From the IMG/VR virus record IMGVR_UViG_3300027804_000038, positions 160,001 to 224,000 of that record: a stretch of 64,000 bases of DNA, one strand, 5' to 3'. Shown here piece after piece: positions 39,165 through 46,768 of this stretch; position 1 is the first letter of the stretch; each line of letters starts with the position of its first letter. A program made the translations under genes and the position numbers. Source of the DNA: a virus (taxonomy: Duplodnaviria > Caudoviricetes). Under the pieces are notes generated by a model, which worked only from the letters and a program-made list of their open reading frames with translations, was not told the origin of the DNA and searched no databases.

Positions 39165-40088
39165 TTGGAAAACTATTATGATATTTTAGGAGTCGCGGAA
39201 ACCGCTACACAAGATGAAATTAAAAAGGCTTACAGACAAAAGTCAAAAGAACATCATCCTGATAAGGGAGGTAACGAGGAAACTTTTAAAAAGATAAATG
39301 AGGCGTATACTACTTTGGGTGACGATAATAAAAAAGTCCAGTATGATAACCAAAGAAAGAACCCATTTGGTAATAATCCTTTCGGTGATATATTTGGAGA
39401 TTTTTTTGGAGGTTTTGGAGGACAACAAGTTAAAAGGGCTCCTGATAAGATTATAAATGTACAAGTAGGTGCCGTAGATTCTTATTTAGGTAAAGAAATA
39501 AATATATTTTTTAACAGGAAAAATAATTGTCAACCTTGTAATGGACAAGGAGGAACTAGAAATACTTGTAAAAAATGTAATGGTAGCGGATTTATTACAC
39601 AAAGAGTTGGTAATGCGTTTTTCTCTAACATTATACAAACTCATTGTAATGAGTGTAATGGTAAAGGTTATAGTCTAACTAATGTTTGTCAATCATGTTT
39701 AGGAGAGGGAAGAATCGACGAAACAAAATCAGTCTCAGTTAATCTCCCAAAAGGAATATCTGACGGGCAGTTAATAAAGGCTGGGGGAATGGGTGATTAC
39801 TCTAACGGTATGTTTGGTGATGTTATATTTAAAATTAATATTATACCACAAGCGGGATTTGAAAAATCAGGTTCCGACTTAGTTTATAATAAATTTATGT
39901 CATTAGATGATTTTACTAAAGAAAAAATCCAAATTCCACATCCATCAGGTGATTTAAATTTAACATTACCTGACGACATAGACACAAGTAAACCACTTAA
40001 AGTAAAAGGTAAGGGTTACCAAAATGAAAATGGTGATTTATATGTTAGAATGTATGTTAGACATAGAAAAAATAAGTTAGATTATTGA
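39165..40088 (+). CDS. dnaJ: DnaJ (Hsp40) co-chaperone
   Basis: J-domain YYDILGV...HHPDK, short G/F region, four CxxCxGxG repeats and a C-terminal domain (GD(V/L)); TTG start. Confidence 0.92.
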   Translation: MENYYDILGVAETATQDEIKKAYRQKSKEHHPDKGGNEETFKKINEAYTTLGDDNKKVQYDNQRKNPFGNNPFGDIFGDFFGGFGGQQVKRAPDKIINVQVGAVDSYLGKEINIFFNRKNNCQPCNGQGGTRNTCKKCNGSGFITQRVGNAFFSNIIQTHCNECNGKGYSLTNVCQSCLGEGRIDETKSVSVNLPKGISDGQLIKAGGMGDYSNGMFGDVIFKINIIPQAGFEKSGSDLVYNKFMSLDDFTKEKIQIPHPSGDLNLTLPDDIDTSKPLKVKGKGYQNENGDLYVRMYVRHRKNKLDY

Positions 40089-40955
40089 ACTAACTAACTT
40101 ATCAACATCAAACATTTCGGAAATTGACATATAAGGACACTCGTGGTTTATTCCCTCAAATGAGTAGTCAAATAAATATGAATCTATCAATTTTACTGTG
40201 TCTGAAGGTAAATTAGCAACAATGTTATTGTGTAAATCGTAACCAAAATTTTTGGGTGAAGTACCAATCCAAATTACGTTAGACTTTAGACCAAGAGCTG
40301 ACGATGCATGTTGTAAACATGAATCAATTAGGATTCTTTTATCTGACACTAAAAGAATTGAGAATAAATCATTAGATGATAACTCATCATTAACAACCTC
40401 AACACCACTGAGTTGTCTAGAAGATGGTTTACAAATTTGAATTATATGGTGAGTCCTTTCAAATTTTTTAACCAAAGACTGAGATACGTCAAAAGGAATA
40501 TCTCTAGTCCATGAATATGGTTGTTTTGAATTAAAGGCACCTCCATTAGTTTGTATAACTAAAATAGGTTTTTCTCTGTACCATTTATTAGATGACCTTT
40601 TTTGTGGTAAATTTAAGTTAAGTACTGGAGTTTGATTTTTATAATCAATACCTAACAAATCAGCCCAATTTTCAATTAGATGGGATTTTTTATGAATATG
40701 ATTTGATTGATAATATGGTTCATGTCTGAAAATTATGGTGTCCTTATCTTTTATATAATCATCATAAAAATATTGAGTGTTACCTAATTTATAAACTCTA
40801 TATATCGAATCATTATTTAAAAATACTTCAGGATATGATGCAACGACTACTATTTTTCTATCTGAATATTTTTCTTTAAGTGAAGATAGTAATGAAGTTG
40901 CCGCAATATTTTTTCCTAAACCACCCTGTATGTGCCAAACTATATATTTTTCCAT
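40077..40955 (-). CDS. GT9-like (heptosyltransferase fold) glycosyltransferase
   Basis: IQGGLGKNIAATSLLSSLKEKY at the N-terminus and ILIDSCLQHASSALG near the C-terminus, resembling the GT9 GLGD and DSG..H.A.ALG motifs. Confidence 0.7.
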   Translation of the reverse strand: MEKYIVWHIQGGLGKNIAATSLLSSLKEKYSDRKIVVVASYPEVFLNNDSIYRVYKLGNTQYFYDDYIKDKDTIIFRHEPYYQSNHIHKKSHLIENWADLLGIDYKNQTPVLNLNLPQKRSSNKWYREKPILVIQTNGGAFNSKQPYSWTRDIPFDVSQSLVKKFERTHHIIQICKPSSRQLSGVEVVNDELSSNDLFSILLVSDKRILIDSCLQHASSALGLKSNVIWIGTSPKNFGYDLHNNIVANLPSDTVKLIDSYLFDYSFEGINHECPYMSISEMFDVDKLVSSII

Positions 40956-41398
40956 TATTTTTTTGTCCCAATTCTTATAAATTTATACCAAACACGCTCA
41001 TGAATAAAGTAAACTATAGGTTTAAATAACAATTCACCAATACCAATTAGAGATGATAGTTCTAATGAAATACCTAAAGAAAAAGCTGAACCAACTGTTA
41101 TTAAAGTACCTAATATACGATAAGAAATTGTTTTTAAAATGTGTCTTGTAAGTACCGATTCTTCTTTAATTGTAGTTATATAGGCTACAGTATTTTTTAA
41201 TTCACATACTCCTTTACAGCTAATATGCCACTTAAATTCATTTAATTCGGGAACCCAATCCTTAGTTGTATAAGTATGACCATCAACAATTATATCGGAA
41301 ACTAAAATTTCATTACCGTTTTCAATTAGTCTCCATCTCTCACATTCATTTGTTGAGTTAGTATTGTATCTTATTTGAAAAGTTTTTATATTCTTCAT
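40955..41398 (-). CDS. Two-domain protein with a C-terminal DUF2061-like membrane domain
   Basis: RHILKTISYRILGTLIT...KPIVYFIHERVWYK matches the DUF2061 pattern. Confidence 0.7.
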   Translation of the reverse strand: MKNIKTFQIRYNTNSTNECERWRLIENGNEILVSDIIVDGHTYTTKDWVPELNEFKWHISCKGVCELKNTVAYITTIKEESVLTRHILKTISYRILGTLITVGSAFSLGISLELSSLIGIGELLFKPIVYFIHERVWYKFIRIGTKK

Positions 41399-41793
41399 AA
41401 TTTACCTTCAAGCCTCATTTGTTCCCTTATTTTAGTTGCAGAAATGTCGTGTATTTCTTGTGGAGGGATTCTTTCAATAATATCATATCCAACACCTCTA
41501 CCAAATTCTATTGAACATATATCAGGTATAACCATCACTTTAACCCTATCACTCAATTCTGAATAGTGTAACTCAATATTACTTTTAACTTCTTGTGCGG
41601 TAAATGGATTTTTTTCATCTGGCTCAATATCTCTAATACAAATTAGAACATTCTTACCTTCATCCATAGCTTGTTTAAATAGCTCCTGGTGTCCTTTATG
41701 TAGAGGTTGCCACCTACCAACAAACATTGCAAATTGACCATCTTTTGATTTTAAAGAGGATTGAACGTGAAGTTTTTTATCCCAATTACTCAT
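41395..41793 (-). CDS. HxGH-superfamily nucleotidyltransferase (cytidyltransferase/NadM-like)
   Basis: FVGRWQPLHKGH and ISATKIR motifs; 4-nt overlaps with cysC and the DUF2061 gene. Confidence 0.8.
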   Translation of the reverse strand: MSNWDKKLHVQSSLKSKDGQFAMFVGRWQPLHKGHQELFKQAMDEGKNVLICIRDIEPDEKNPFTAQEVKSNIELHYSELSDRVKVMVIPDICSIEFGRGVGYDIIERIPPQEIHDISATKIREQMRLEGKL

Positions 41794-42218
41794 TTTCTAT
41801 TAAAAGGTATTAAATTAAGACATTCGTCTATAGTTTTATTTGTTGTATCGATATTAATAAAGTCTTCAGTTGGTTGTTCATATTCCTTAACAAAATTATG
41901 TTCTCTACCCCTGATTTCACTTGTGTGAACATATATTTCACAAACTTCATTAGTTTCCTTTAATGAGTTTCTCATTTTTTTATAAGGAGCAACAACAGAA
42001 ATAACAACAGTAAATCCCTTGTGGTCTAAAAATCTAGCTAAATCTAATACAGATTGGATATTTTTAATTCTACCTTCTGAAGAATAATCAAAGTTTTGAA
42101 ATAGTTCTCTCAAACCATCTCCATCAACATTAATACAATTATCTGAACACTTCTCAATTAAAGCGTTTGCTAATGTTGTTTTTCCTGCACCAGGTTGACC
42201 TGTAAACCAATAAATCAT
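41790..42218 (-). CDS. cysC: Adenylyl-sulfate (APS) kinase, compact form
   Basis: IYWFTGQPGAGKTTLA P-loop, DGDGLR, GRIKNI, VISVVAPY, EIYV and YEQP. Confidence 0.8.
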   Translation of the reverse strand: MIYWFTGQPGAGKTTLANALIEKCSDNCINVDGDGLRELFQNFDYSSEGRIKNIQSVLDLARFLDHKGFTVVISVVAPYKKMRNSLKETNEVCEIYVHTSEIRGREHNFVKEYEQPTEDFINIDTTNKTIDECLNLIPFNRK

Positions 42219-42478
42219 TGTGATATGTAGTTTTTACCCGATTGAATTGAATCGTTAATATCCTGTAGTTGGTTTTGAGTTAATCCTGACATAAACCAAT
42301 CTTTATTTTTCATCAATTCTAAATGTTTATAGTTTCTTTCTACAGTATTTTTTTTTGTGTCAATATCGTCATTAATAAGTTTAGACCCATCGATTATACC
42401 ATTTATTAGGTTCACTGAGTCAAATGCTGAATTAATTGACCTTGCAACATTTGGAACTCTTTCTTTTTCGTTATCCAT
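42215..42478 (-). CDS. Hypothetical helical protein, possible fibre-associated chaperone
   Basis: 87 aa; the DSVNLIN...RNYKHLELM..KDW pattern recalls small ORFs found beside phage fibre genes (recollection, not a search). Confidence 0.45.
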   Translation of the reverse strand: MDNEKERVPNVARSINSAFDSVNLINGIIDGSKLINDDIDTKKNTVERNYKHLELMKNKDWFMSGLTQNQLQDINDSIQSGKNYISQ

Positions 42479-42484
42479 ATTATT

Positions 42485-43300
42485 TTATTTATAGTTAAAT
42501 TTATTAAAAAACCAATTATAATGATTATATAATCTATTACAATTTTCAATACCTAATATCTCATTATAATCTTCTTTTTGAGGAGAAAGAGTATTTTTAA
42601 TGGTATGGTCACCAAAAATACCATGGATTACATCATTTTCATGAGTTAATTGTTCTATTCTCTCAAAATCATGTTGATATGGAGGTATTTCTAAATAATT
42701 ATAAATTCGTTTTAGTTCTAATTCAGGATTTGAAGTTAAATCTTCAAATCGGATAAATAAAATATCTTTATCGTATCCTTGGTGAATTGATTCATATAAC
42801 CATTCTAAAGATGGACCAATTGGCGGAGATATCGAAAAGTGGTCAATTCTTGAATTAGTTGTCATATTTTTCAGCTCAGAAACATTTACTAAAAGAGGGT
42901 CCTTATGTGAGTTCTTTCTATAGTTTTTTTCCATTGAAGAAAAAATAGACCTAAGGTCTCTAACCATACAGATAATTTTTGGAGTACCGTAAAACCATTT
43001 TAAGAAATGGTAGTTACCAATCCAAGCTCTACTCTTATCAATAACATAAGGTCTTTCAGTAATACCATCAAAAAAACCATTTAAACCTTTTTCACAAAAA
43101 CTTCTTAATCCCTCTTTCATTTCATCAGGATTTTGAGCTTTAAATGCGTCTCCTGTTGAATATATTGTTCTGGCTTGTAAAATTAATTCTATAACACCTG
43201 ATGTTGGTGTAGAATATATGTCAGGATTTTGCATTAATATATTTTGAATTAATGTCGAGCCCGCTCTAGGTAAAGAGGCATTAAAAAATATTTTCTTCAT
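42485..43300 (-). CDS. PAPS-dependent sulfotransferase (Sulfotransfer_3-like)
   Basis: 5'-PSB loop SLPRAGSTL, 3'-PB motif RDLRSIFSS, and IRFEDL. Confidence 0.85.
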   Translation of the reverse strand: MKKIFFNASLPRAGSTLIQNILMQNPDIYSTPTSGVIELILQARTIYSTGDAFKAQNPDEMKEGLRSFCEKGLNGFFDGITERPYVIDKSRAWIGNYHFLKWFYGTPKIICMVRDLRSIFSSMEKNYRKNSHKDPLLVNVSELKNMTTNSRIDHFSISPPIGPSLEWLYESIHQGYDKDILFIRFEDLTSNPELELKRIYNYLEIPPYQHDFERIEQLTHENDVIHGIFGDHTIKNTLSPQKEDYNEILGIENCNRLYNHYNWFFNKFNYK

Positions 43301-43337
43301 GGGTTAATTTTAACCTATAAAGTTATAAATGTCAAAG

Positions 43338-44855
43338 TTAAGCTAATAAAACTTTATATGAATTACCATTAATTATAATTTCCCAAGTTCTATAAGATTT
43401 ACAAGATTCATAAGTTATTGTTCCTGCGGGAAATGACGAGCTTCCAACCACTAATTGGTTATTTGCGGTTGCAAATGCGTTATGACCAATAATAATTGAC
43501 GAGCGATAATTATAAGAGTTTGTATTACAACCTATAGCAATATTGTTCGAACCTGTAGTATTATAATATAATGATTTATAACCTATTGAAATATTATTGG
43601 CTCCTGATGTATTATAATATAATGACTTATAACCAATCGAAATTAGATAACTAGCTCTTGTACTATTTACGGTTGACCTAAATCCTACTGAAACATTTTT
43701 ACTTCCATTATTATTTGAATACAATGAACTTCTACCTATTGCAATATTAAAACTTCCACAGTCATTTAAATACATTGAACCTCTACCCATTGCTATGTTA
43801 TACGACCCTCTATTTCCATAACTAGTACTACCAGCCAAAGCTCTCCTACCAATTGCAATATTACCTGAACCATTCCTGTTACATAATAATGCGCATCTTC
43901 CTATTGAAATATTAAAATCGTTATACTGACTTAAATTGTAGTACATAGATGATTGACCTATTGCGATATTGAAGTCTGATTTATTTAAATTTAGTCTTAA
44001 AGAATCGTAACCTATTGCAATGTTTGAATCACCATCACAACTAGTTCTCATGGAGTTTGTACCTATTGATATATTTTTAGTACCATTGATATTAGAGCGT
44101 TGAGAATTAACACCTAATGATATGTTATTATCCGCTTTATTATCAATTAGAGTACTAGCCCCTAACGAAATATTATTACTACCACTAGCTGAGTAATATT
44201 GAGAATCATTACCCAAAGAAATGTTATTAACTCCCCCACTTCTTCTTTTTTGACTATTCCTACCTATTGCGATATTATCACAAAAATTTGCAGAAATACA
44301 ACAACCCTCTAAAGAAGAAGTTCCTATTCCTATATTATTAGAACCAGTAGATAAATTTTTTAAAGTACTTTTACCTATAGAGACATTATTATCTAGTAAA
44401 GATACAGGTAATTTAAATGCAACATTACCTATCGAAATATTACTAGAGTCATTTCCATTGCCCCTACCAATACAAACACTATTAACATCCAAAGTCGGAG
44501 ACGACACTGTACCATCAAAAGTCAATAAAGATTCTGCAACTGTTCCACCAGACCCATTAGATGTTAATACCTGATTGTTTGAACCTGAAATACTAAACGA
44601 AGGTGTTCCACTAAAGGTAAGTTTATCACTTCCATCTATAATAGTAATATTAACACCACTAAAACTTTTCAGAGCAATGTTTCCACCTGTAACACCAGAT
44701 ATATCTGAGACACCGTTACCAACAGTGTAAGCACTTGTTATGTAACTCGTAAGTGCGGAATATACCTCCCAATATATACCATTCCATTCCCACGTTTTAT
44801 TATCGTAAGTATATTGTTGATTTGGTGACGGACTATTTGGAAAATTAATTGGCAT
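43338..44855 (-). CDS. Tail-fibre-like protein with 17-residue NISIG/NIAIG repeats
   Basis: N-terminus MPINFPNSPSPNQQYTYDNKTWEWNG typical of fibre modules; the repeat block is paralogous to 9107..12571. Confidence 0.7.
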   Translation of the reverse strand: MPINFPNSPSPNQQYTYDNKTWEWNGIYWEVYSALTSYITSAYTVGNGVSDISGVTGGNIALKSFSGVNITIIDGSDKLTFSGTPSFSISGSNNQVLTSNGSGGTVAESLLTFDGTVSSPTLDVNSVCIGRGNGNDSSNISIGNVAFKLPVSLLDNNVSIGKSTLKNLSTGSNNIGIGTSSLEGCCISANFCDNIAIGRNSQKRRSGGVNNISLGNDSQYYSASGSNNISLGASTLIDNKADNNISLGVNSQRSNINGTKNISIGTNSMRTSCDGDSNIAIGYDSLRLNLNKSDFNIAIGQSSMYYNLSQYNDFNISIGRCALLCNRNGSGNIAIGRRALAGSTSYGNRGSYNIAMGRGSMYLNDCGSFNIAIGRSSLYSNNNGSKNVSVGFRSTVNSTRASYLISIGYKSLYYNTSGANNISIGYKSLYYNTTGSNNIAIGCNTNSYNYRSSIIIGHNAFATANNQLVVGSSSFPAGTITYESCKSYRTWEIIINGNSYKVLLA

Positions 44856-44864
44856 ATCTTTTCG

Positions 44865-46079
44865 TTATAAATAATATAATATTTCAGCAGTTCCTAAGAA
44901 AGTTGCATTAGCCCCCAATGGGGTAATACAAACCCACATTTCATCTAAAGTACCATTCACATTAGAACCTACTCTTATTTGGTTATCATCCACTTTTATT
45001 GTTGTTAATGCTGATGTTCCAGCCTCCCCAATTAATGAAGACATAATGTGTCCACTACTTGTTATTGTGGTAGCCCCAACACCTAATGAATATTGGAATG
45101 GTGAGTTAGGAATATCAGTCCAAGTTGGTGTCGCTGACAAGGTTGGGTTAAACTCAATGGTCATTAAATAGTTATCATTTGATGTATTTAATAAACTTAA
45201 ACTACTATATTGTGATGTAACAGATTTATAGGATTGTTTTAATCTATACCCAATATATGGATATTTTGTACCTGAAGTCGATAAGGTTGCAGTTGATGAA
45301 TGTATAACCCCAACGGTACTATATAAACCATTTAATGCACCTTCAGTAGAAACTTGACTACATATCATATCAAAACTACCCGAACCCGACCCAACTTGTC
45401 TTATCTCATATCTTATAGGTTGGTTTGGTGAACTCATATAAACTAAACTTTCATTATTAGAACAATTATGTTCAGTAAAATAAAATGTTTGTCCAGATAA
45501 AGCAAGTCCAAATCTCAACCTACCAACTCCTAACCATTGGTAATCAACAGTCATTAACTGAGTGTTTGACCATATAAGATTTGTTGGGTCAAATTCATTT
45601 GTTTCCCAAGTTGTTGTTGACGCACTAAATATTGTTGTACCTGACCTCCAAATTTGAAAACTTATCGTATTTGATGTTCCGTTACTTTCCAAGAAGAACC
45701 CGTCAAAAACTGAATTATAAGTTGATGCGGTTGTTGTAGTAAAACATCCCACTCTTTTTATTACATTTGTTTCTAACTGAAAATTTGAAAAACTTCCCTC
45801 AAATAACTGACTCTTACCAGGTTGGTATATTGGGTGTGTTTTTGTTTGTCTAATTACCAAATCATTATTTGAAGATGTTGACATTCTAACTCTCGCATAC
45901 TCCTTATTAAAAACTGATGTCGCAGTTCCTGCGGTTACTTCATTAACTTGTAATGGGTTTTTGTCGTAAACATGCTTAATGTCCAATAGATTTTGTACCG
46001 CAGCAGTCCTCAATCTACCAAAAGCGTCAAGATTTGGACTATCAGAATATTTTACCGCATTATTATATATAAAACTCAT
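44865..46079 (-). CDS. Putative virion structural protein (beta-rich)
   Basis: DAFGRLRTA...RQTKTHPIYQPGKSQ...DYQWLGVGRLRFG; ATG at 46079 overlaps the upstream stop, whereas the track uses TTG 46091. Confidence 0.55.
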   Translation of the reverse strand: MSFIYNNAVKYSDSPNLDAFGRLRTAAVQNLLDIKHVYDKNPLQVNEVTAGTATSVFNKEYARVRMSTSSNNDLVIRQTKTHPIYQPGKSQLFEGSFSNFQLETNVIKRVGCFTTTTASTYNSVFDGFFLESNGTSNTISFQIWRSGTTIFSASTTTWETNEFDPTNLIWSNTQLMTVDYQWLGVGRLRFGLALSGQTFYFTEHNCSNNESLVYMSSPNQPIRYEIRQVGSGSGSFDMICSQVSTEGALNGLYSTVGVIHSSTATLSTSGTKYPYIGYRLKQSYKSVTSQYSSLSLLNTSNDNYLMTIEFNPTLSATPTWTDIPNSPFQYSLGVGATTITSSGHIMSSLIGEAGTSALTTIKVDDNQIRVGSNVNGTLDEMWVCITPLGANATFLGTAEILYYL

Positions 46080-46768
46080 ATTAAATACCAATTTCCGCCC
46101 CTAACCATACAGGTTAAAGACATATAGTTTATGTTCATATCAACGTAATTATTGTTGTCAATTGTTCCTGATGAAGGTGTTAATCTTATTCTATAAGTAC
46201 CACAAATCCCTGCTTCATCTTTTATTATTAAATAATAACCCTCTTTACCTACTACCGATGGTAATACCAAATCAACATTACTATTACCACTTATACCCCA
46301 ATATGTTTTATCCCAAGTTAAAGATTGTCCTGTAGTAATTCCTGTTGTTGTATAATATCCCGCATCAGGTGATAAAGGACCTGGTACCGAGAACGGCTGA
46401 ACCCATTGTTGTGAATCACCATCATCAATCCAAACCAATTCAACACCTGTATTTGTATTGAACCACCTATCCCCACTTATAATAATTCCTGTAGGTGTTG
46501 ATGCAGATATATAATATTGTAGACCTCCACTCGAAGACCCTGAAACAGGACCCCAATAAGCATAACCTGTACCATCGGTTAATAAAGCATATCCATTTTG
46601 TTCAGTTCCATTAGAATAGGTAAAACCGCTATAAACTGTTAAACCTGAAGAAAAAATTGGATTAACAGGAATTGAACCACCTATACGATAAACAACACCT
46701 GTTGAAAGGTCAGATTGAAGTACGTAATTATAACTATCCTTAATTAATTGGTCTTTAATATCGGCCAT
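46076..46768 (-). CDS. Short tail-fibre-like protein
   Basis: GDRWFNTNTGVELVWIDDGDSQQWVQ fibre module; first gene after the palindromic TATTTAT element. Confidence 0.5.
   Translation of the reverse strand: MADIKDQLIKDSYNYVLQSDLSTGVVYRIGGSIPVNPIFSSGLTVYSGFTYSNGTEQNGYALLTDGTGYAYWGPVSGSSSGGLQYYISASTPTGIIISGDRWFNTNTGVELVWIDDGDSQQWVQPFSVPGPLSPDAGYYTTTGITTGQSLTWDKTYWGISGNSNVDLVLPSVVGKEGYYLIIKDEAGICGTYRIRLTPSSGTIDNNNYVDMNINYMSLTCMVRGGNWYLI

Follow-up and report, generated by a model that had tools for sequence, protein, structure and literature searches.

A putative sulfate-activation and sulfotransferase cassette beside tail-fibre genes of large aquatic phages

We analysed a 64,000-nt stretch of phage DNA (Duplodnaviria; Caudoviricetes), termed the window below, which corresponds to bases 160001-224000 of the 293,850-bp IMG/VR virus record IMGVR_UViG_3300027804_000038. 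The record, from a freshwater jumbo phage, is complete by the CheckV estimate, and the G+C content of the window is ~29-30%. On the minus strand, from position 46768 down to 40077, a tail-fibre locus is followed by a cassette of accessory genes for a sulfotransferase, a kinase resembling adenosine 5'-phosphosulfate (APS) kinase, a small nucleotidyltransferase (NT), a DUF2061 membrane protein and a glycosyltransferase (GT) of the GT9 type. We favour, with some confidence, the reading that this locus joins a self-contained supply of 3'-phosphoadenosine 5'-phosphosulfate (PAPS) to two cytoplasmic transferases acting most likely on the fibre. The chemistry is the firmer part, and the module very probably makes PAPS and transfers sulfate. 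The assignment of the fibre or virion as the acceptor is tentative.

Candidate ATP sulfurylase and kinase

The central enzyme of the proposed PAPS supply is NT (41395-41793, minus strand; 132 aa; PF01467, 33.1 bits), a HIGH-family nucleotidyltransferase and candidate mini ATP sulfurylase. The strongest support for this role is the phyletic complementarity of the kinase-NT pair with Sat and CysD. Cellular members of the family were found via a degenerate DNA pattern for PDI-x5-GRGVGY, and the first 80 loci were taken. All but one (79/80) are true NT members, with a kinase adjacent or fused in 41 of the 79; they come from Thermodesulfobacteriota, Dadabacteria, Marinimicrobia, Bacteroidota, bacteria of the candidate phyla radiation (CPR), Woesearchaeota and others. 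Among 50 NT-bearing genomes, Sat was found in three and CysD in three. The 41 genomes with a kinase-NT pair include one with Sat and three with CysD, and 37 have neither. Both genes are also absent from seven Chitinophagaceae genomes (2.7-4.1 Mb) with NT and a DUF2061::kinase fusion; on the Chitinophagaceae chromosome L112 such a fusion (160.8 + 50.6 bits for APS kinase and DUF2061), NT and Sulfotransfer_3 follow each other in a row. As a control we used 100 random genomes of the family of genome G001: APS kinase is carried by 35 of them, with CysD in 26 and Sat in the other nine, and none has NT. Since an APS kinase lacking a source of APS makes no sense, NT is the obvious APS provider. A point on the other side is that many NT genomes are incomplete metagenome-assembled or single-amplified genomes (MAGs, SAGs) and are interrelated, so that the absence of Sat and CysD is weaker evidence than it looks.

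Fusion proteins point in the same direction. The protein collection contains ~7,500 NT homologues, the family ranging in size from 112 to 190 aa. A search of 1.84 billion representative proteins gave fusions in which NT stands before or after a full-length APS kinase close to the consensus (230.7 bits in P0273; 139-172 bits in P0259, P0267 and P0277), as well as fusions to lid-less kinases. The original prediction, made from the sequence alone, had guessed that the HxGH enzyme adenylylates sulfate. The fusions to APS kinase and the complementarity with Sat and CysD give this guess strong comparative support, and we consider it likely that NT replaces ATP sulfurylase.

The kinase of the cassette (41790-42218, minus strand; 142 aa) is an APS-kinase-like P-loop kinase. 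It matches PF01583 (E 2e-18; 67.2 bits, cut-off 21.1) at profile positions 4-110 of 152 only, and its best solved match is the APS kinase 7yq0 (1.5e-17, residues 2-99), with which the motifs GQPGAGKTT, DGDGLR and SVVAPY align. A canonical 193-aa APS kinase with all motifs present fills the same slot in loci L009-L011, and a canonical kinase is also found in the fusion P0273. Two features of the short kinase weigh against an APS kinase activity. It scores below every NCBIfam cut-off (75.9 bits vs 138.7 for TIGR00455), and it has no APS-kinase lid (RDxKGLYxKAxxGxIxxFTG), a KGLY-type lid motif being absent from all 77 phage kinases.

By its sequence, NT appears to descend from NadM-type adenylyltransferases of nicotinamide mononucleotide (NMN). 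The family profile matches archaeal and NadM-type NMN adenylyltransferases (NMNATs) in the PDB (1f9a, 3.7e-12, positions 14-83), and the motif GRWQPLHKGH fits the NadM pattern GRxQPxHxGH. The AlphaFold model of NT (pLDDT 92.6) has NMNATs and phosphopantetheine adenylyltransferases (PPATs) as its nearest folds (Z 9.3-9.6, with 9.6 for NMNAT). The profile match to NMNATs ends at position 83 of 132, so that the NMN-binding second half is unmatched; this half contains an invariant GRxVGY loop specific to the family. The score against PRK01153 is 38.4 bits and does not reach the cut-off of 127. We rejected a true NMNAT, because nothing beyond position 83 is matched and the neighbouring genes consistently point to sulfate activation.

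The same comparisons speak against an ATP sulfurylase of the usual kind. NT obtains 17.3 bits with the Sat model PF01747 (cut-off 24.3), in the HxGH stretch only, Sat is not among the PDB profile matches of the family, and the Sat fold matches the NT model with Z 7.6 over 113 aligned residues, below NMNAT and PPAT. NT is not a member of the Sat family by sequence or fold; it is proposed to work like one.

The family PF01467 also includes HldC, TagD and CCT, which brings in a different role for the pair. The kinase and NT could supply the GT9-like enzyme with an activated sugar or other phospho-compound, as HldE and HldC do in making ADP-heptose, and the sulfotransferase would then use host PAPS. 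A weak PHROG match of NT to the heptose-1-phosphate adenylyltransferase family and the translational coupling of the NT, DUF2061 and GT genes in the window are consistent with this role. So is the order kinase-HAD phosphatase-NT in some phages, which resembles the ADP-heptose pathway and, fitting sugar-phosphate activation as well, counts against sulfate activation. We nevertheless consider such a role highly unlikely. The canonical APS kinases fused to or paired with NT (up to 230 bits) are very unlikely to be sugar kinases, and NT-bearing genomes keep APS kinase while lacking Sat and CysD. Moreover, the GT9-like gene is missing from half of the kinase-NT loci, and HldC is only the 25th match of NT by fold (Z 6.3).

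The inserted HAD-type phosphatase is a protein of 113-123 aa (Hydrolase_3/HAD_PNKP) encoded between the kinase and NT in several phages (L059:9623-9991, L041, L063, L064, L066, L073, L032 and L038). It could serve to remove 3'-phosphoadenosine 5'-phosphate (pAp), or it could be part of a different route. A repair set of the polynucleotide kinase-phosphatase kind, made up of kinase, HAD protein and NT and suggested by HAD_PNKP and PHROG polynucleotide-kinase matches, was discarded, as canonical APS kinases are interchangeable in the kinase slot.

Further NT-containing proteins were noted in metagenomic data. In P0378 (432 aa), NT is fused to a DHH/DHHA1 phosphoesterase, presumably of the NrnA family with pAp phosphatase activity, and this fusion hints at recycling of the sulfotransferase by-product. 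In P0299 and P0282, a Cys-rich N-terminal region resembling an HNH or homing endonuclease precedes NT in the same open reading frame (ORF); it may represent a homing-endonuclease insertion or a fusion made by gene calling.

In cellular genomes, L112 (4474-5172) and six more Chitinophagaceae loci (L120, L126, L142, L145, L151 and L161) encode DUF2061 N-terminally on a canonical APS kinase, followed by NT. In L112, the locus in which flanking genes were scanned, an Asp/Asn beta-hydroxylase-like gene lies upstream. A lone 152-aa NT member with no kinase beside it was observed on Thermodesulfobacteriota and Dadabacteria chromosomes within L113-L169. Its neighbours in L162 (3899-4357) are genes for a Leu/Phe-tRNA protein transferase, a GATase and a methyltransferase, and ORFs matching these in size recur at other loci of the group. 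The sampled genomes of this group have neither Sat nor CysD.

Conservation of the cassette and its link to fibre genes

The conservation of the cassette was studied in 80 IMG/VR loci, selected via an NT alignment that gave at least 561 stretches with NT, and scored with hidden Markov models built from the window proteins. The kinase lies beside NT in 77 loci. A DUF2061 match was obtained in 65 loci, whereas 49 contain the sulfotransferase and 40 the GT9-like gene; all parts occur together in 26. The stable core is kinase-NT-DUF2061, which would constitute the PAPS supply, and both transferases are frequent accessories. The same five or six genes were found in phage contigs of 339-411 kb and 157-208 kb in at least four arrangements. 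In one of these, kinase-NT-DUF2061 is convergent with sulfotransferase-GT; in another, the order is GT-sulfotransferase-kinase-NT-DUF2061; in a further one, the cassette ends a long island of GT2, GT4, GT9, GT25 and GT34-like genes and methyltransferases. Three IMG/VR relatives found through the sulfotransferase have the same gene order as the window. Hundreds of phage contigs keep the set, with its genes in varying order. Near-verbatim copies of the region 40077-46768 occur in freshwater, lake and estuary metagenomes (12 studies), and a blastn search of deposited phages in the distant mode gave no match to it.

The genes of the cassette tend to adjoin fibre genes when a sulfotransferase is present. 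The fibre of the window next to the cassette, fib505 (43338-44855, minus strand; 505 aa), is a tail fibre or spike (phrog_4636 tail spike, E 7e-39) with many NIAIG/NISIG repeats visible in the translation. A cassette was scored as fibre-linked if the ORF abutting it is fib505-like or has 600 aa or more, for which the background is 11%. Cassettes with the sulfotransferase abut such an ORF in 36 of 49 loci (41/83 sides), compared with 7 of 31 loci (7/49 sides) for those without it. Giant Laminin_G_3 proteins and an Mtd_N-domain protein of 1713 aa are among the neighbours. Homologues of fib505 occur in 16 of the NT-selected loci, all sulfotransferase-bearing, and adjoin the sulfotransferase gene or lie one to two genes upstream of it. 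In the close syntenic relative L028 (1782-10839), the fibre set is different, consisting of a 737-aa protein and three Gly_rich_2 proteins; this locus keeps kinase-NT-DUF2061 and has neither the sulfotransferase nor the GT9-like gene.

Several observations limit this link and weigh against a dedicated fibre modification. A reverse search from fib505 found distant fib505-like fibres with no sulfotransferase. About 27 of the 80 loci contain the kinase and NT, with or without DUF2061, and no detectable sulfotransferase or GT, and in about one third of the loci the PAPS core with neither transferase lies away from fibres. In the cultured phages Salvo of Xylella (gp32, L005) and DLP_6 of Stenotrophomonas (AAY80_227, L006), a kinase::NT fusion (phrog_10255, annotated as 'kinase') sits among DNA-metabolism genes, and no PF13469 protein was found anywhere in either genome. 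The linkage to fibre genes is real for both transferases, and it is facultative, as expected for an optional decoration. In locus L232, a homologue of the GT adjoins a fib505-like fibre and sulfation genes are absent.

These distributions bear on two further explanations. The first is an ordinary auxiliary set that boosts host sulfur assimilation by making PAPS for cysteine, in which case the fibre neighbourhood would be an accident of a variable region. Assimilatory sulfate reduction is the category to which viral cysC is routinely assigned (as by Chen et al. 2020, bioRxiv 10.1101/2020.02.13.942896), and the many phages that have kinase-NT and no sulfotransferase, some of them with the pair among DNA-metabolism genes, agree with such a role. 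Among cellular genomes, one of Nitrospiraceae has CysH next to NT, and one of marine Bacteroidetes has MetH next to kinase-NT. Against this, the 294-kb genome of the phage as a whole has no match to PAPS_reduct (CysD/CysH), Sat or CysQ-type proteins, yet encodes the sulfotransferase in the same coupled gene string. The sulfotransferase gene is directly upstream of the kinase gene where present (49 of 80 loci), and the fibre adjacency of such cassettes is ~3.5 times that of sulfotransferase-less ones. The chance that the set serves assimilation seems very small to us. The original prediction had reported no reductase genes here and had argued that this is not simple sulfur assimilation; the first statement holds genome-wide, and the second is supported by the presence of the sulfotransferase and the APS-kinase-like kinase in a genome that lacks the reductase.

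The second explanation is that the cassette modifies phage DNA or nucleotides, producing a sulfated or glycosylated base. Some kinase-NT pairs adjoin genes for a DNA methylase, MazG, topoisomerase or ligase, and phage GT-B enzymes are known to glycosylate DNA (PMC12619734). In this phage, the cassette is located amid structural genes, its sulfotransferase resembles protein-tyrosine sulfotransferases, and the GT is of the GT9 type rather than the T4 glucosyltransferase type. This explanation appears very improbable. We know of no sulfated DNA base.

Two minor observations may be added. A 'cysteine dioxygenase' gene lies 4 kb upstream of the kinase::NT fusion in Salvo. Phage-like cassettes with the short kinase occur, in stretches of 31-38% G+C, in MAG bins assigned to Flavobacteriaceae (L178), Ignavibacteria (L172), Crocinitomicaceae (L131), Taishania (L141) and Flavobacteriales (L183), and those in L178 and L172 also have the sulfotransferase, DUF2061 and GT. 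They give a weak hint to the host range or are mis-binned phage contigs.

Transferases, acceptor and proposed pathway

The sulfotransferase (42485-43300, minus strand; 271 aa) is a PAPS-type enzyme present in a single copy in the phage genome. It passes both PF13469 (64.2 bits, cut-off 27) and PF00685 (40 bits, cut-off 22). When its family profile was compared with the PDB, the tyrosylprotein sulfotransferases TPST1 (7.7e-17) and TPST2 (1e-11) came on top, the match covering positions 3-213, followed by polyketide (2e-10), cytosolic (1e-6 and weaker) and carbohydrate (2e-3) sulfotransferases. The motifs PRAGST and VRDLRSIFSS of the window protein are conserved in the family: the 5'-phosphosulfate-binding (5'-PSB) and 3'-phosphate-binding (3'-PB) motifs, PR(A/S)GST and (V/I)RDxRxxxxS, are found in 14 of 15 aligned sulfotransferases, the exception being a distant metagenomic homologue (L106).

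The GT (40077-40955, minus strand; 292 aa; hereafter GT292) is also a single-copy gene. According to its AlphaFold model (pLDDT 73), GT292 folds as a GT-B enzyme of the GT9 type. The first Foldseek match in the PDB is 3tov (E 4.6e-11, TM 0.68), followed by WaaC, WaaF and TibC, and nearly all top matches are GT9 enzymes, at sequence identities of 11-14%. GT292 has no Pfam match of its own at E 0.1, PF01075 included, and its profile found nothing meaningful among PDB sequences. An ortholog (L019:6861-7739) passes PF01075 with 23.4 bits (cut-off 22), and structural neighbours of GT292 in the ESM Atlas carry this domain.

The DUF2061 protein (40955-41398, minus strand; 147 aa) combines a soluble N-terminal domain of ~80 aa with a two-helix membrane domain (PF09834, 50.7 bits, cut-off 23.1, residues 87-137). 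More than 600 full-length homologues share 65-85% identity with it, and its two halves are encoded by separate genes in other phages. A comparison of the N-domain with the PDB gave only noise. A predicted complex of the kinase, NT and this N-domain received a score of 0.00 with a poorly folded partner, which weighs neither way.

From these data we propose the following pathway. NT would adenylylate sulfate, converting ATP and sulfate to APS with release of pyrophosphate, and the lid-less kinase would phosphorylate APS to PAPS. The DUF2061 protein could tie this supply to the inner membrane, as an anchor or as a route of sulfate entry. The TPST-like sulfotransferase would consume PAPS in the cytoplasm, and the GT9-fold enzyme would add a sugar, probably from an ADP-activated donor. 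The most likely acceptor would be the neighbouring NIAIG-repeat fibre prior to virion assembly. Sulfate might be placed on tyrosine directly or on the sugar installed by the GT9-type enzyme, and either would result in a negatively charged receptor-binding organelle.

The sequences of the two transferases open straight into the catalytic folds, and no N-terminal signal or membrane segment was found in them; therefore, their acceptor must be accessible from the cytoplasm. As the sulfotransferase family is nearest to protein-tyrosine sulfotransferases, direct sulfation of tyrosine seems at least as likely as a sulfated glycan on fibres or Pro/Thr stalks. The original prediction had named the latter, or else a re-decorated host lipopolysaccharide, as the product; its sulfation module stands, and its acceptor becomes one option among others in view of the TPST-like enzyme. 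In the HMMER alignment, the catalytic Glu of TPSTs ('GEE') is aligned with 'PTS' of the phage enzyme, which has no acidic residue there. A point against the fibre as acceptor is that animal TPSTs typically prefer tyrosines in an acidic context, and the repeat tyrosines in the fib505 translation are not in such a context.

The same PAPS and sulfotransferase kit could instead act on the host envelope, that is, on the core of lipopolysaccharide (LPS), lipid-linked O-antigen or capsule precursors at the inner membrane face, and thereby block superinfection or the sticking of progeny to debris. The heptosyltransferases of the LPS core form family GT9, two of them (WaaC and WaaF) being top fold matches of GT292, and DUF2061 puts the pathway at the membrane. 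Islands of related phages contain GT2, GT4, GT25, FkbM-type methyltransferase, DegT aminotransferase and epimerase genes, and in a Marinimicrobia genome Sulfotransfer_5 and the kinase-NT pair occur together with an adjoining Wzx-type flippase gene. On the other hand, the sulfotransferase and the GT co-vary with the fibre type, and giant fibre-like genes adjoin them much more frequently than they adjoin a PAPS core by itself; the sulfotransferase is nearest to protein-tyrosine and not to carbohydrate sulfotransferases. The position of the cassette behind structural genes suggests late expression, which would be poor timing for exclusion. We therefore regard an envelope acceptor as unlikely and retain the fibre as the preferred one.

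The most comprehensive form of the proposal is more tentative still. Large aquatic phages may sulfate their own fibres, by tyrosine O-sulfation or via a sulfo-sugar made with the GT9-type enzyme, using wholly phage-made PAPS from an NMNAT-derived mini ATP sulfurylase, a lid-less kinase and a DUF2061 partner that maybe imports sulfate. This would be the first case of virion sulfation in phages and a third class of ATP sulfurylase, used also in Chitinophagaceae, Marinimicrobia, CPR bacteria and DPANN archaea. If it is true, phages would use sulfation, in addition to glycosylation, to modify their own receptor-binding organelles or the surface of the infected cell. In freshwater and marine systems, this could determine host range, adsorption and the escape from defences directed at fibres. 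NT, at 112-190 aa, would be a new, non-homologous ATP sulfurylase and would supply the step missing from many MAGs (Chitinophagaceae, Marinimicrobia, CPR bacteria and Woesearchaeota) that have APS kinase and no ATP sulfurylase. The scoring of viral 'cysC' in surveys of auxiliary metabolism, now as assimilatory sulfate reduction, would change, and DUF2061, as a membrane protein that assists sulfate activation, would for the first time be placed in a functional context. By the counts of NT homologues and IMG/VR stretches given above, the module is abundant.

Related systems and organisation of the locus

The two-step logic of the proposed supply is that of PAPS synthases (human PAPSS1/2, Aquifex aeolicus Sat-CysC, CysN/CysC), in which a HIGH-superfamily adenylyltransferase is combined with a P-loop 3'-kinase. 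These enzymes are often fused in either order, and the phage family likewise shows both orders. Unlike PAPS synthases, NT is small, has no PUA-like domain, fails the Sat Pfam model and is apparently of NadM-type NMNAT descent; the phage kinase has no lid, and the phage set regularly includes a DUF2061 membrane protein as third partner. In rhizobia, NodP/NodQ/NodH also combine a dedicated PAPS supply with a specific sulfotransferase encoded beside it, for sulfation of a glycoconjugate. In contrast to the phage set, NodPQ is of the CysDN/CysC type, the acceptor is a lipo-chitooligosaccharide and the system is bacterial. In a Mesorhizobium nod locus, a DUF2061 gene occurs along with nodH, nodP and nodQ (bioRxiv 10.1101/2022.04.26.489235). 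A tblastn search of plasmids with the DUF2061 domain gave no match, so this link to nod loci comes from one preprint.

Animal TPST1/2 and RaxST of Xanthomonas, which acts on RaxX, represent the class of the best solved relatives of the phage sulfotransferase, and the PAPS-binding motifs are conserved between them. Unlike TPSTs, the phage enzyme lacks an acidic residue at the aligned position of the catalytic Glu, and it is phage-encoded and apparently cytoplasmic. The GT9 enzymes TibC/AAH and WaaC/WaaF share the GT-B fold with GT292 at 11-14% identity, GT292 itself being below the PF01075 threshold. TibC acts on a repeat-rich beta-helical adhesin, a direct analogy to the repeat-rich fibre.

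Viral transferases decorate structural proteins of their own virion in the cytoplasm in the case of mycobacteriophage capsid and tail glycans (Freeman et al. 2023, as cited in PMC12619734) and of chlorovirus capsid glycans. Sulfation or PAPS synthesis is not reported for these two systems, and in the present case virion modification is suggested by the genes. Homologous genes are deposited for cyanophages S-SKS1, S-SRM01 and S-SCSM1 and in PHROGs 27463 and 10255, automatically annotated one by one as 'sulfotransferase', 'kinase' or assimilation genes. A full-text literature search found no paper on phage PAPS synthesis coupled to sulfotransferases or on virion sulfation, nor any description of the linked module or of an ATP-sulfurylase role of the small enzyme. 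In Synechococcus phage S-SRM01 (L008, 230774-235158), the genes of a homologous sulfotransferase (32% identity), a beta-1,4-glycosyltransferase and an epimerase of nucleotide sugars form a row; this row looks like another phage glycan-sulfation locus.

The locus of the window consists of nine consecutive minus-strand ORFs from 46768 down to 40077, with intergenic gaps of -16, 9, 37, 6, -4, -4, -4 and -1 nt. The nine genes, and the overlaps of 1-4 nt between the last five of them, had been described in the original prediction, and the ORF listing agrees with both descriptions (overlaps of 4, 4, 4 and 1 nt). The last five genes, from the 87-aa ORF through GT292, are translationally coupled. Two other parts of that description were not confirmed. 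The palindromic 8-mer TATTTATA, taken for a late motif, occurs 21 times in the window compared with 20 expected, and we dropped it as a statistical late signal because the count equals chance. A single operon from the fibre to the GT is not established: the best sigma70-like match within 39-48 kb (TTGACA-17-TAAAAT, 11/12, a match to the consensus only) lies in the 37-nt spacer (43301-43337, minus strand) directly before the sulfotransferase gene, which leaves a single transcript unproven, and the stretch 40077-46768 was found in no RNA run.

The run starts with a 230-aa protein (46076-46768, minus strand), a fibre N-terminal or adaptor protein with a weak PHROG tail-fibre match. Over the first 79 aa it shares 78% identity with the start of a 1127-aa fibre that occurs in the nearest relatives, L002 and L003. 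It is followed by a 408-aa virion structural protein (44865-46091, minus strand; phrog_1645, E 1e-49), which is kept in the relative L028. Between the sulfotransferase and the kinase, a small protein of 87 aa is encoded (42215-42478, minus strand), which is present in 17 of the 80 loci, often directly 3' of a fibre gene. Its homologue trails fib505-like fibres in L231 and L232, both without sulfation genes. Because its gene trails fibre genes also where sulfation genes are absent, this protein probably belongs with the fibre rather than with the sulfation chemistry.

On the opposite strand, a full gene for a DnaJ-type co-chaperone (39165-40088, plus strand), with a J domain and Cys-rich zinc-finger repeats, runs towards the end of the cassette, where 12 nt of it overlap with the 3' end of the GT292 gene.

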